A stretch of 21,499 nt of DNA from a bacterium (GTDB taxonomy: Bacteria; Patescibacteriota; Minisyncoccia; JAUYLV01), in assembly GCA_030699565.1 (NCBI GenBank), contig JAUYLV010000023.1, forward strand, positions 1 to 21,499, written 5' to 3'. Under the pieces are notes generated by a model. The model saw only the letters and a list, made by a program, of their open reading frames with translations, searched no databases and was not told the origin of the DNA. The position numbers and the translations under genes were made by a program. Below are positions 1 to 21,499 of this stretch, one piece after another (within the stretch, counting starts at the first letter, position 1; each line of letters opens with the position of its first letter).

Positions 1-211
1 CAAGGCGCTTGTGGCGCGAGCCCGAAAGATTCAGAAATTCCTGGCACAGCCGTTCTTCGTTGCCGAAGTGTTTACGGGCAAAAAGGGCGCGTATGTTTCG
101 CGCGAGGATACGGTTCGCGGATTCCGTGAGATCCTGGAAGGCAAATACGATGATAAGCCCGAGCAGGCGTTTTACATGAAGGGAAGTATTGAAGAAATCT
201 CTCAAGGATAA
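1..211 (+). CDS. atpD: ATP synthase F1 beta subunit, 3' end (5' partial, runs off the window)
   Basis: The frame is open from the window edge. The translation ...[60 protein letters not shown] matches the conserved beta-subunit C-terminus (E. coli ...[58 protein letters not shown]). Stop TAA at 209-211. Confidence 0.9.
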
Positions 212-244
212 AAAAGATGGCGACAGCTTGCATGCTGTCGCCAT
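210..244 (-). terminator. Intrinsic terminator in minus orientation: 11-bp perfect stem ATGGCGACAGC/GCTGTCGCCAT (217-227 / 234-244) with loop TTGCAT, followed on the minus strand by CTTTTTT (plus A-run 210-215). It overlaps the atpD stop codon
   Basis: Inverted repeat read directly. The U-run exists only in the minus orientation; the plus side has no T-run, so atpD transcripts are not expected to terminate here. Confidence 0.6.
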
Positions 245-251
245 GATCCTG

Positions 252-425
252 TTAGGAAGTGCGATTATCCTTCTTTCCGCCCTTGCCTTTCTTCGCGCTC
301 TTGTCGGCCTTCTTGGTCTGACTGGCCAAGCTGGGCCCGTTTCCTTTCATCGAAAACGTGTGGTCGCAGTTTTTGGGGCCGCAGTTGCAACCTCCACCGA
401 TCGTTCCACCACGCAGAAATGGCAT
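252..425 (-). CDS. Small 57-aa Cys-containing, Lys-rich protein (MPFLRGGTIGGGCNCGPKNCDHTFSMKGNGPSLASQTKKADKSAKKGKGGKKDNRTS), antisense to the atp operon. It is not in the ORF track because it is under 60 aa
   Basis: Minus-strand ATG at 425-423. It is preceded by GGGAGG (reverse complement of plus 434-439) with 8-nt spacing. Stop TAA is the reverse complement of 252-254. A minus-oriented terminator lies 7 nt downstream of the stop. A consensus TTGACA-17-TAATAT promoter lies upstream at plus 459-487. Hand-translated codon by codon. Confidence 0.55.
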   Translation of the reverse strand: MPFLRGGTIGGGCNCGPKNCDHTFSMKGNGPSLASQTKKADKSAKKGKGGKKDNRTS

Positions 426-458
426 GTAAAGAACCTCCCACTATTTTTTTACTTTAAG

Positions 459-487
459 ATATTAATACTTATAAATAAAAATGTCAA
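459..487 (-). promoter_or_regulatory. Sigma70-type promoter on the minus strand: -35 TTGACA (reverse complement of 482-487), 17-nt spacer, -10 TAATAT (reverse complement of 459-464). The -35 overlaps the atpC start codon
   Basis: Exact consensus hexamers with optimal spacing. The predicted transcription start near plus 452 gives a 27-nt leader containing the GGGAGG site of the 57-aa ORF. Confidence 0.5.
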
Positions 488-723
488 TAGCCCTAAAGAT
501 CTATAGCATAGACAAGACCCTCTACGAAGGAGAGGCTGATGCCATAACCCTTCCGGGCTCCGATGGGGAGCTTGGGGTGCTTGCTATCCACACCCCCTTG
601 ATTTCTAATCTAAAGCATGGTATAATAAAGATTCGCAATAAAGATGCGGAAAAGTTCATTGAAATAAACGGTGGATTTGTCGAAATCCAGCCGGAAAGCA
701 AGGTTATAGTGCTCGCAGACTAA
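481..723 (+). CDS. atpC: ATP synthase F1 epsilon subunit, short 80-aa form containing only the N-terminal beta-sandwich domain
   Basis: MSIALKIYSIDKTLYEGEADAITLPGSDGELGVLAIHTPLISNLKHGIIKIRNKDAEKFIEINGGFVEIQPESKVIVLAD aligns with the epsilon N-terminal domain (E. coli ...[29 protein letters not shown]...[22 protein letters not shown]). The ORF stops right after VLAD. No Shine-Dalgarno site; the upstream sequence is AT-rich. Confidence 0.85.
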   Translation: MSIALKIYSIDKTLYEGEADAITLPGSDGELGVLAIHTPLISNLKHGIIKIRNKDAEKFIEINGGFVEIQPESKVIVLAD

Positions 724-4197: not shown

Positions 4198-4238
4198 TTT
4201 TTGCCTCCATTTAGCTTATATTTTAAAGAGCGAAATTT

Positions 4239-4267
4239 ATATTAATAATAAATCATGAAAATGTCAA
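4239..4267 (-). promoter_or_regulatory. Promoter for the 2914-4197 gene: -35 TTGACA (reverse complement of 4262-4267), 17-nt spacer, -10 TAATAT (reverse complement of 4239-4244)
   Basis: Consensus hexamers with 17-nt spacing on the minus strand. Confidence 0.45.
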
Positions 4268-4290
4268 TATTTGGCTTAAAAACGGAACTA

Positions 4291-4319
4291 TTGACATATT
4301 CATATTTATTTGCTATTTT
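4291..4319 (+). promoter_or_regulatory. Promoter for the NfeD-flotillin operon: -35 TTGACA (4291-4296), 17-nt spacer, -10 TATTTT (4314-4319)
   Basis: Hexamers with 17-nt spacing. Together with the minus promoter it forms the 9-bp inverted repeat ATGTCAATA...TATTGACAT (4261-4269 / 4289-4297). Confidence 0.4.
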
Positions 4320-4411
4320 AGCTAGTCCGCTGAAATGCTGTCCACAGCTATTGGTGGAAAATCTGAACATTGTCAATCGAAAAAACTGACAAGGAAAGGA
4401 GAAATTGCCTT

Positions 4412-5026
4412 ATGGAGCATACGGCTTTGTTCGGAATGCTGTTCGCTTCTCCATGGTCGCGTATGGGCCTGTCGATGTTCTTTTTCTGGCTCACCTTCGT
4501 GGCTTTGGCAGCGCTATCGATCTCGTTGCTCTTGGGACATGATCATGACGCGGATCATGACATGGACCACGATGCGGATAACGACCACGATACGGATCAT
4601 GACGGATCGGGAAATATGAGTTTTATTTCGATCAGGATCCTGCTGATGTTCGTTGCGGGGTTTGGTGCCGGAGGATACTTCGGCGCTCGCGCGGACTATG
4701 ACGTGGCGGGGAGTTCATTCTTTGGAGTCGTTGGCGGCTTGATACTTGCCGCTATCGGCTACGTATTTCTCAACTGGCTGTACAGGCACCAAGCAACATC
4801 CACGGTAAAAACCCGCGATGTTATCGGGAGCATCGCTGTTGTTTCGATTGCGATCGCGCCCGACGGAGTGGGAGAAATCGTATGTGCGGTGGGGGATCGT
4901 CAGGAATGGTTTTCCGCACGGACAACCCAGCCGACGACTATTCCAATCGCTTCACGCGTACGCATCACTGCCGCGATGGGCTCAATGCTGGTTGTGGAGT
5001 CTGCCGGCGAAACAAAACAAAACTAA
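4412..5026 (+). CDS. NfeD-family membrane protein (short form, YuaF-like): TM helices plus a C-terminal OB-fold beta-barrel, with a His/Asp-rich loop
   Basis: AGGAG upstream of ATG 4412 (the ORF-track TTG at 4370 is in frame). The C-terminus DVIGSIAVVSIAIAPDGVGEIVCAVGDRQEWFSA...ITAAMGSMLVVE is NfeD-like. A flotillin gene follows immediately, as in the conserved nfeD-flotillin operon. Confidence 0.7.
   Translation: MEHTALFGMLFASPWSRMGLSMFFFWLTFVALAALSISLLLGHDHDADHDMDHDADNDHDTDHDGSGNMSFISIRILLMFVAGFGAGGYFGARADYDVAGSSFFGVVGGLILAAIGYVFLNWLYRHQATSTVKTRDVIGSIAVVSIAIAPDGVGEIVCAVGDRQEWFSARTTQPTTIPIASRVRITAAMGSMLVVESAGETKQN
4538..4609 (+). repeat. In-frame low-complexity codon repeat encoding HDHDADHDMDHDADNDHDTDHD (CAY-GAY hexamer periodicity) inside NfeD
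   Basis: catgatcatgacgcggatcatgacatggaccacgatgcggataacgaccacgatacggatcatgac, read directly. Confidence 0.6.
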
Positions 5027-20264: not shown

Positions 20265-21499
20265 TTAATTGCTCCTAAATAGTTCCAAGCCCTCCTTTAC
20301 CGTTGCGGTGCGGGTATTCGTGGTTTGCAGATGATCAATAATCTCCTGAAGCATTGCGGGAGGCGTGCTGTATGCCGATCCGTCGTTATCGATCCGATGG
20401 AGTGCCAGGATGAGCCATGTCTTTTCCTCACGAGCCTCGTCGATCCAGGTTTTGATTTGCGCCGCAGTGACGCTGTTGTCGGCCCGGTGCCGCTTGAGCG
20501 CAAATGCATCCAGCATAGTGGGAATATTGGCGCCGTTATCCGTGGAGCGTGCGGCGACAAATCCCTCATTACGGAGAATTTGTTTCAGCCCGTCGTTGTA
20601 GGCGCCGAACGGATAGGCGAACGTTTTTACGGAATGGACGCCAATGGAGATAAGATCATCGCGCGAACCGGCTATTTCTTCCGTCGCTTCCGCCAGGGAC
20701 ACCGTCGTCAAATCCCGGTGCGTTCGGGAGTGCGCTCCGATCTCATGGCCTTCATTTTGCATCGCGATGACTTCGGTCGGGGTGATATACGCGGGAAATC
20801 CCAGATATCCCGTTGCGATATATTGAGTGCTTTTAATACCCGCCCCGCGCAGCATCGGGATGGCATTTTCGTATATGCTTTTCCAGCCATCATCGAATGT
20901 GAGGGTTACGATGCCTTCGGTCGGATCGCCGCCGGATGCCGCAACCAGCCCATAATCATCAATCGTAAGCGTTCCCACCGTATTAATCAGGTGAAAGATC
21001 GTTACCGAAACCGTTCCCTGAGGCGCGGTGAACGTCACATCCGTTCCCTGTGGTCCGGCAGCCGCCGTATGCCGCATCAGATCCTCGTATAAGAATTGTC
21101 CGTTGCCGAGCGCGAAACGCGCGGTGATGGTGCTGGGAATGTTCGCGACGAAGCGGTCGGTGAAGCGCCATGAACTTCCCGGCGTTATCGGCACATCCGC
21201 AAAATACCATTTTGCGTCTCCCGATGTGCGCGATGTCAGCGCGACACGCGCGGCGCGTGCTCCCTCCAGGCCGGCTACAGGGTAGGTGAATACCGCGGTA
21301 TTCGTTCCCCATCGTCCACGGAACCATCCTTGTGGATCTCCAGAAGTGGCGGCGGTTTCAAGCGACGGATTGGCGATTCGGTTGGGGCCCGAATCAGGCA
21401 GGACTTCCTGCAGCCCATAATCATCAATCGTAAGCGTTCCCACCGTATTAATCAGGTGAAAGATCGTTACCGAAACCGGTCCCTGAGGCGCGGTGAACG
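20265..21499 (-). CDS. Polysaccharide deacetylase (CE4/NodB domain) with at least two N-terminal CBM4/9-like domains; the 5' end runs off the window
   Basis: TLTFDDGWKS ... HSRTH ... are CE4 motifs 1 and 2. The upstream domain (NPSLE...GDPQGWF...) is CBM-like. The frame stays open to the window edge; the ORF-track 'M' at 21443 is an internal GTG. Confidence 0.8.
   Translation of the reverse strand, partial: FTAPQGPVSVTIFHLINTVGTLTIDDYGLQEVLPDSGPNRIANPSLETAATSGDPQGWFRGRWGTNTAVFTYPVAGLEGARAARVALTSRTSGDAKWYFADVPITPGSSWRFTDRFVANIPSTITARFALGNGQFLYEDLMRHTAAAGPQGTDVTFTAPQGTVSVTIFHLINTVGTLTIDDYGLVAASGGDPTEGIVTLTFDDGWKSIYENAIPMLRGAGIKSTQYIATGYLGFPAYITPTEVIAMQNEGHEIGAHSRTHRDLTTVSLAEATEEIAGSRDDLISIGVHSVKTFAYPFGAYNDGLKQILRNEGFVAARSTDNGANIPTMLDAFALKRHRADNSVTAAQIKTWIDEAREEKTWLILALHRIDNDGSAYSTPPAMLQEIIDHLQTTNTRTATVKEGLELFRSN
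20946..21034 (-). repeat. Copy A of an 89-nt near-identical direct repeat (copy B is at 21411-21499, offset 465 nt, 88/89 identical) encoding FTAPQG(T/P)VSVTIFHLINTVGTLTIDDYGL at the ends of consecutive CBM-like domains
   Basis: Direct comparison of the two stretches; the single difference is t/g at 21014 versus 21479. Confidence 0.8.

Follow-up and report, generated by a model that had tools for sequence, protein, structure and literature searches.

The gap between atpD and atpC in the window (the whole 21,499-nucleotide stretch of contig JAUYLV010000023.1, from a bacterium of the Patescibacteriota) probably holds a genuine small gene on the minus strand, transcribed independently as a monocistronic unit, whose product would combine a metal-binding knuckle with a polyanion-binding tail. 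That it is a real, expressed protein-coding gene is very likely. The predicted gene is an orphan small-protein gene of patchy distribution, belongs to a new family of three members, and already stands in the NCBI annotation as a hypothetical protein (Q8Q39_01300). An earlier note on this DNA had described a gap of 269 nucleotides (nt; 212–480) containing a minus-strand promoter of the form TTGACA-17-TAATAT, a GGGAGG site 8 nt before an ATG, and an open reading frame (ORF) of 57 codons, and all of these were recovered in the same places (Table 1).

Table 1. Coordinates of the features of the atpD-atpC region in the window and of the small gene in two homologous loci (aa, amino acids)
Feature	Location	Strand	Details
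Probable small gene, 57 codons plus stop	252–425	-	ORF list; predicted product MPFLRGGTIGGGCNCGPKNCDHTFSMKGNGPSLASQTKKADKSAKKGKGGKKDNRTS; single possible start, ATG at 425; stop codon at 252–254
-35 core TTGACA	487–482	-	Promoter scan
Extended -35 box TATTGACAT	481–489	-	Reverse complement of the atpC start ATGTCAATA (ATG-TCA-ATA, the first three codons)
-10 hexamer TAATAT	459–464	-	Promoter scan; 17-nt spacer, 10/12 overall
Shine-Dalgarno site GGGAGG	434–439	-	8 nt 5' of the ATG at 425; read from the sequence
Predicted intrinsic terminator	207–244	-	Hairpin 244–217; U-run 216–207 over the atpD stop codon
105-aa hydrophobic ORF	189–506	+	Predicted antisense shadow; as a gene it would share 23 nt with atpD and 26 nt with atpC
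atpD 3' end (F1 beta subunit)	1–211	+	Stop TAA at 209–211; gene runs off the left contig end
atpC (F1 epsilon subunit)	481–723	+	80 aa, beta-sandwich domain only
Stretch without counterpart in the nearest relatives (L006, L004, L005)	212–463		DNA alignments
Small gene in L010 (encodes P0017)	within 545 nt		Divergent from an ORF starting MSITLSVYTIEKKLYEGDADSLQLPG (MSITLSVYTIEKKLYEG...), the atpC N-terminus
Small gene in L009, 68 aa	173–379 of L009	-	MEWIGGGCSCRAKGQLCTHQGPSGFSKKAGGPSFTQKAAAAEKKGKKKG...; ORF list; found by synteny; L009 atpC 74% identical to that of the window

The position of the -10 hexamer would place the transcription start near 452. The stem-loop with U-run that the earlier note had seen overlapping the atpD stop codon was found as a hairpin of 11 pairs, seven of them G-C, with the tail CTTTTTTATC; it is among the three strongest in the window by the terminator scan, and its folding energy is -22.9 kcal/mol (z-score z = -4.8 against shuffles). 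Read in the plus direction, the hairpin has an A-run before it and no U-run after it, so that it is expected to be a poor terminator for atpD. The window has six sites in which TTGACA is exact and at least 10/12 positions match (1904, 4267(-), 4291, 12547, 14386, and 487(-)), each just 5' of an ORF read in the same direction, which suggests that canonical promoters are in use in this organism. In its extended form, the box TATTGACAT is present in three copies against 0.16 expected, a count reached by 0/100 shuffles, and all three copies lie at promoter-like sites. The identical TTGACA-17-TAATAT form is found at 4267–4239 (-), driving a 427-aa gene, and TATTGACATTTT may be the extended -35 signature of the clade. 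With canonical promoter use, the enrichment of TATTGACAT, and the recurrence of the whole unit in two other loci, the predicted minus-strand unit of the window is above chance. The two further copies of TATTGACAT sit in back-to-back promoters at 4267–4239 (-) and 4291–4319 (+), within the divergent intergenic region 4198–4369.

This reading draws further evidence from two homologous loci, each in another uncultivated bacterium. In an exhaustive HMMER search of 1.84 billion protein representatives with the small protein, the sole credible match other than itself was P0017 (68 aa), with E=1e-7 and an identity of 50% over residues 3–46. In its locus, L010, the promoter is TTGACA-17-TATAGT (11/12), whose -35 falls on the start codon of atpC, the Shine-Dalgarno site is weaker than those in the window and L009, and a hairpin with U-run (-20.2 kcal/mol, z=-5.1) lies 3' of the small-gene stop. 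The far flank of L010 (438–545) is by eye not atpD-like in any frame. The third member, in L009, has a TTGACA-17-TATAAT promoter (12/12), also with the -35 on the atpC start, an AGGAGG site 8 nt 5' of the ATG, the same distance as in the window, and a terminator in which a 22-pair hairpin, with an outer and an inner stem, leads into a U-rich tract (z=-5.7). A hidden Markov model of just two sequences, the window peptide and P0017, was run against 6482 six-frame segments of 76 sequences and found the L009 ORF at E=2.3e-5 and nothing else below E=1. Beyond the L009 small gene lies another minus-strand gene with a TTGACA promoter of its own, and the window is the only one of the three loci in which the small gene stands between atpD and atpC.

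Common to all three loci are the 17-nt spacer, a -35 box that is the reverse complement of the atpC start, the head-to-head arrangement with atpC, and a strong terminator hairpin; the promoter, Shine-Dalgarno site, ORF, and terminator share one orientation in each. Together these features make up a predicted independent bacterial transcription unit in three homologous loci. The -35 box on the atpC start codon, pointed out by the earlier note for the window, thereby extends to L009 and L010. That note had also spoken of a complete antisense expression unit. A real small-protein unit is supported by the P0017 and L009 matches, but the word antisense proved loose, as the predicted transcript overlaps no atp coding sequence save the atpD stop codon and is antisense only to a read-through atpD-atpC transcript. 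In the public annotation of L009, a 124-aa product in another frame (3–374, over the contig end) masks the small ORF, and atpC is called 13 codons short, from 484 instead of 445. Protein databases therefore under-represent the small members of the family.

The question of which strand codes was addressed by local BLOSUM62 alignment of all frame pairs for the three locus pairs. The minus frame of the small ORF comes top in every pair, with scores of 134, 86, and 68 versus 85, 78, and 53 for the best other frame. The ratio of nonsynonymous to synonymous proportions (pN/pS; Nei-Gojobori proportions on a codon alignment, six frames) is 0.56, 0.76, and 0.65 in the minus frame, the lowest of the six frames in each pair, and 1.31, 0.96, and 0.95 in the 105-aa plus frame, on an alignment that was guided by the sense protein, has synonymous sites near saturation, and leans toward the sense frame. 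The minus ORF is taken as the predicted gene and the plus ORF as its shadow because of these two comparisons and the signals facing the minus strand in three loci, which agrees with what the earlier note had proposed for the hydrophobic ORF.

The product is probably a polybasic protein with a Cys-Cys-Cys-His (CCCH) metal-binding site. In the three-member alignment the invariant columns are M1, G10–G12, C13, C15, C20, H22, F24, S32, K45, and K46, and the four potential metal ligands among them, C13, C15, C20, and H22, are unchanged in 3/3 members. The common pattern is a glycine-rich GGG-C-x-C-x(4-6)-C-x-H, a conserved Phe, and then a Lys-rich tail, in which the share of Lys is about 40% in the window copy. 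In the proposed mechanism, the minus-strand promoter would give a transcript of about 240 nt that spans roughly 452 to 207. Its product would be a small protein made in abundance, in which Cys13, Cys15, Cys20, and His22 of the glycine-rich knuckle bind a single metal ion, most likely Zn(II), and whose disordered polybasic tail would bind a polyanion, either nucleic acid or an acidic protein surface. High expression is suggested by the near-consensus promoters of the three loci, by the Shine-Dalgarno sites, of which two are strong and the one in L010 weaker, and by the strong terminators. The biochemical role itself, a metal knuckle joined to a polyanion-binding tail, is offered tentatively.

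The earlier note could name no family for the protein, and the searches agree: none of the three members matches Pfam or NCBIfam at E<=1 to 10, and the small protein has no match among PDB sequences at E<=10. A word-indexed search of 5.8 billion proteins returned only the peptide itself, and only the two known members when the two-sequence alignment was used. A scan of GTDB genomes with atpC gave distant relatives only (29–36% identity). The JGI metagenome scan with the small-protein alignment gave no match, and with the atpC alignment it gave 60 loci, one of them above 50% identity and none with the small gene. A further candidate, P0018 (2031 aa, E=5e-6), carries ten ...NCSGPNCDQ.SYSWSGNG.SQQGQT... 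repeats (one at about 1024–1059) resembling CNCGPKNCDHTFSMKGNGPSLASQT; it was set aside as a summed weak match of Cys/Gly/Asn-rich sequence, probably compositional, and was not tested further. The local likeness of its repeats to CNCGPKNCDHTFSMKGNGPSLASQT is striking.

The flanking genes are clearly assigned. The last 66 codons of atpD match NCBIfam TIGR01039 (E=1.9e-26, profile positions 394–456 of 462), and the atpD C-terminus can be aligned with atpD of L004 and L006. The atpC product matches Pfam PF02823 (E=9.4e-22) and TIGR01216 (E=8e-21, profile positions 2–79 of 130), and the epsilon C-terminal helical domain is missing from it. A short epsilon is found clade-wide, with 77–86 aa in all close relatives and the inhibitory C-terminal helices gone. 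Upstream of atpC the DNA is A/T-rich, with no Shine-Dalgarno site in the window or in relatives.

For comparison of the gap, atpC homologues were collected and their contigs fetched. The atpD-atpC gap is 13 nt in L006 (atpC 80% identical to that of the window), 19 nt in L004 and L005 (69%), 45 nt in L011 (65%), 1 nt in L012 (61%), and 2 nt in L016 (63%), and the small ORF is absent from the gap in all of them. Short gaps without the ORF in the nearest relatives indicate that the small gene is accessory and patchy, and therefore not a conserved part of the atp locus. The finding that the earlier note had named as arguing against a conserved gene, a short gap without the ORF in related genomes, was thus made, although the unit does recur relative to atpC in two other loci. 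The predicted gene goes with the start of atpC and not with the gap between atpD and atpC in itself. Homology between the window and the short-gap relatives restarts about 17 nt 5' of the atpC ATG, which corresponds to the promoter spacer plus the -35 box. Non-carriers retain AAAATGTCAATA and the spacer, and everything from the -10 on is missing; TATTGACAT is kept in L009, L010, L004, and L006. The -10 hexamers differ among the carriers (TAATAT, TATAAT, and TATAGT), each exactly 17 nt from an identical -35. By atpC identity, carriers are interleaved with non-carriers: the nearest relative of the window is L006 and that of L010 is L012, neither of which has the gene.

Because carriers and non-carriers are interleaved and the -35 and spacer remain in the non-carriers, the simplest reading of this history would be an ancestral unit that was deleted several times. 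Under an alternative history, a cassette would have been inserted repeatedly, and at every insertion its -10 would by coincidence have come to lie 17 nt from a -35 that was already there. Spread of the unit by recombination via the atpC flank is possible. A comparable arrangement is seen in L004, from assembly GCA_030649025.1, which carries at 918–1648 a 215-aa minus-strand gene between atpG and atpD, with no Pfam match on record. The promoter of this gene is TTGACA-17-TATTAT (11/12) with the -35 on the atpD start ATGTCAA, a layout that parallels that of the small gene relative to atpC.

Several points weigh against a genuine gene with the proposed product. A lone promoter match is not significant, with 3 found versus 1.4 expected in 1.5 kb. 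In the frame comparisons, besides the leaning of the pN/pS alignment described above, the margin is narrow for the window versus L009 (86 vs 78). A codon-usage score trained on window genes gives the small ORF 0.02, at the 7th percentile of true frames, and the plus frame a host-like 0.25; the low score may be attributed to the odd Lys/Gly content of the peptide, as the score includes amino-acid composition, and the two effects were not separated. The nearest relatives are without the small gene at the atpD-atpC locus, with gaps of 1–45 nt, and the predicted gene has a family of three members only, all from metagenomes. Metal and polyanion binding are proposed from the residue pattern alone. 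The AlphaFold2 model, made from a two-sequence alignment, has a predicted local distance difference test score (pLDDT) of 53 and no secondary structure, and is too poor to exclude a helix formed on binding, such as an inhibitory one entering the F1 alpha3-beta3 head.

The RNA, or the act of transcription, may instead be what is functional, opposing the atp operon with an RNA fully complementary to the intercistronic stretch of atpD-atpC read-through transcripts and lowering or uncoupling epsilon through collision, occlusion of the atpC start, or cleavage of double-stranded RNA, with a peptide that is secondary or has a dual function. Such a role would suit the placing of the -35 over the start codon of atpC in each of the three loci, the transcription of the window small gene convergent with atpD, and the L004 gene on the atpD start, with which such promoters on atp starts recur in the clade. 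We nevertheless regard it as unlikely, since conservation is at the protein level and accompanied by the Shine-Dalgarno sites, and at the DNA level the three genes have diverged strongly. In L009, moreover, the neighbour beyond the small gene is on the minus strand, which leaves no adjacent atpD read-through to oppose. No structured-RNA signal was found in the whole gap beyond the terminator (z=-2.1), and Rfam gave no match in the window at the gathering score, the weak match being that of the terminator hairpin to CsrC (11 bits vs gathering 61). It is quite improbable that the stretch is a neutral remnant or a recent insertion, in which the ORF and its signals arose by chance and the NCBI call is a false positive. 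The closest relatives without the stretch, the lack of a family match anywhere, the low codon-usage score, and the insignificance of a single promoter match would all be expected on that account, but it is largely refuted by two independent homologues with identical signals and position, by the invariant Cys and His residues, and by the lowest pN/pS in the sense frame.

A real gene on the plus strand, read from 189–506 or from the ATG at 243 and encoding either a small membrane protein that shares a transcript with atpD and atpC or a type I toxin with an antisense RNA made from the minus-strand promoter, would account for a hydrophobic frame that is open in all three loci and has a host-like codon usage. 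This is highly improbable: its frame has the higher pN/pS values and the lower BLOSUM score in every pair, no Shine-Dalgarno site or conserved start precedes it, it would overlap both atpD and atpC, and the promoter, Shine-Dalgarno site, and terminator point the other way in three loci; open antisense frames are, besides, expected opposite AAG/AAA-rich genes. The patchy distribution among close relatives, together with a weak 20-nt inverted repeat (75% complementary) near the boundaries, at 196–215 and 444–463, could suggest a miniature mobile element or a phage or plasmid cassette. This repeat, whose left arm lies within conserved atpD coding sequence, was rejected as a transposon end, no second copy of the small gene occurs in the 21.5-kb contig or in 75 loci, the small protein has no match in the IMG/VR, phage, and plasmid collections, and the position relative to atpC is the same in three diverged loci, which leaves mobility an extremely improbable explanation.

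If the stretch holds a small protein-coding gene, as we prefer, its unit would break the tight atpD-atpC coupling of the relatives. Expression of atpC would then come from read-through transcripts meeting oncoming polymerases, or from a weak promoter of its own with a nearly leaderless mRNA. Polymerases reading through from atpD would meet the small-gene promoter head-on and make an RNA complementary to some 240 nt of the small mRNA, and a polymerase on the minus-strand promoter would lie over the stretch of DNA in which atpC starts. We infer that the small-gene promoter may regulate epsilon or interfere with atpC. Two candidates for the promoter of atpC itself were seen by eye, TTTACT-16-TATAAA at 448–475 in the window and TTGACT-17-TATCCT in L009; both are weak matches for which no claim is made, and both would yield nearly leaderless mRNAs.

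Other features of the window were also observed. The gene directly 3' of atpC (755–1330) is conserved in the clade, with counterparts in L004 (3344–3919, 191 aa, the same gene), L016 (681–1136), and L009 (868–1290). Its product has no Pfam match at E<=1 and shows by eye C-x-D ... H-x-x-C-G-A motifs reminiscent of the zinc ligands of beta-carbonic anhydrase. A promoter-like TTGATT-17-TATAAT with an upstream TG (10/12) lies inside atpC at 598–626 (+), with a similar site at the equivalent place in L009 (562–590), and could be an internal promoter for this downstream gene. Imperfect 12-nt tandem repeats (GATCATGACGCG...) at 4541–4603 are in frame with ORF 4370–5026 and encode a His/Asp-rich run. 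At the right end of the contig, an 89-nt direct repeat occupies 20946–21034 and 21411–21499, the copies being 99% identical with a distance of 465 nt between them; the second copy ends exactly at the contig end and lies in or at the start of ORF 20265–21443(-). It could reflect a repeat within the protein or an artefact of assembly at the contig end.

That a metagenome-assembled genome should contain an orphan small gene is no surprise by itself. The interest of this one would lie in an undescribed small-protein family with invariant Cys/His ligands and a polybasic tail, one of whose three members was left uncalled and replaced by a call in another frame, an illustration of how such genes escape detection. 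The atpD-atpC junction, tight in the relatives, also appears to be breakable and repairable repeatedly within one clade.

A short hydrophobic ORF opposite a transcript with a strong promoter and terminator recalls type I toxin-antitoxin systems. In contrast to these, the conserved, translated-looking ORF here is the hydrophilic one, and the hydrophobic frame gives no sign of constraint and has no Shine-Dalgarno site or conserved start. The promoter resembles divergent back-to-back promoters laid over the start of the neighbouring gene, with the -35 hexamer on the first codons of the divergent gene, although in this case the neighbour, atpC, is internal to a normally tightly coupled operon and no regulator site was identified. 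The opening three codons of atpC here contain the -35, with a parallel at the start of atpD in L004, and the locus would be a natural case of one sequence serving both as a coding start and as a promoter element of the opposite strand. The predicted product is similar to ribosomal protein bL36, which has CCCH ligands, and to the zinc knuckles of retroviral nucleocapsids in being very small, with three Cys and one His within 10–12 residues, an adjoining polybasic tail, and gene signals that point to high expression. The ligand spacing is C-x2-C-x12-C-x4-H in bL36 and C-x2-C-x4-H-x4-C in the CCHC knuckle, but C-x-C-x(4-6)-C-x-H here, and no family model matches.

Small regulators of the F-type ATP synthase include mitochondrial IF1 and the C-terminal helical domain of epsilon. 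Small trans-acting regulators have also been described, namely AtpTheta in cyanobacteria (bioRxiv 10.1101/2021.07.30.454416) and the zeta subunit in alphaproteobacteria (PMC8039183). The predicted product resembles such regulators as a small protein of about 50–70 residues with a basic segment, encoded by an atp-linked gene in an organism whose epsilon is without the inhibitory C-terminal domain. It differs from them in having no Pfam or NCBIfam match (PF00401, IF1, and zeta models included), in an hhalign probability of 0.2% against the full-length epsilon P0016, and in that relatives with an equally short epsilon are without the small gene at the locus. We know of no counterpart of the Cys/His motif in AtpTheta, zeta, IF1, or the epsilon C-terminal domain, and to our knowledge AtpTheta is not encoded in the atp operon. 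There is only a slim prospect that the product is a trans-acting regulator of F1Fo ATP synthase, which would sense metal or redox state through its knuckle, bind the acidic F1 head with its tail, replace the lost epsilon C-terminal domain conditionally, and be made in opposition to epsilon through the promoter on the atpC start. If the peptide does act on ATP synthase, it would represent a new class of regulator in organisms with a truncated epsilon.

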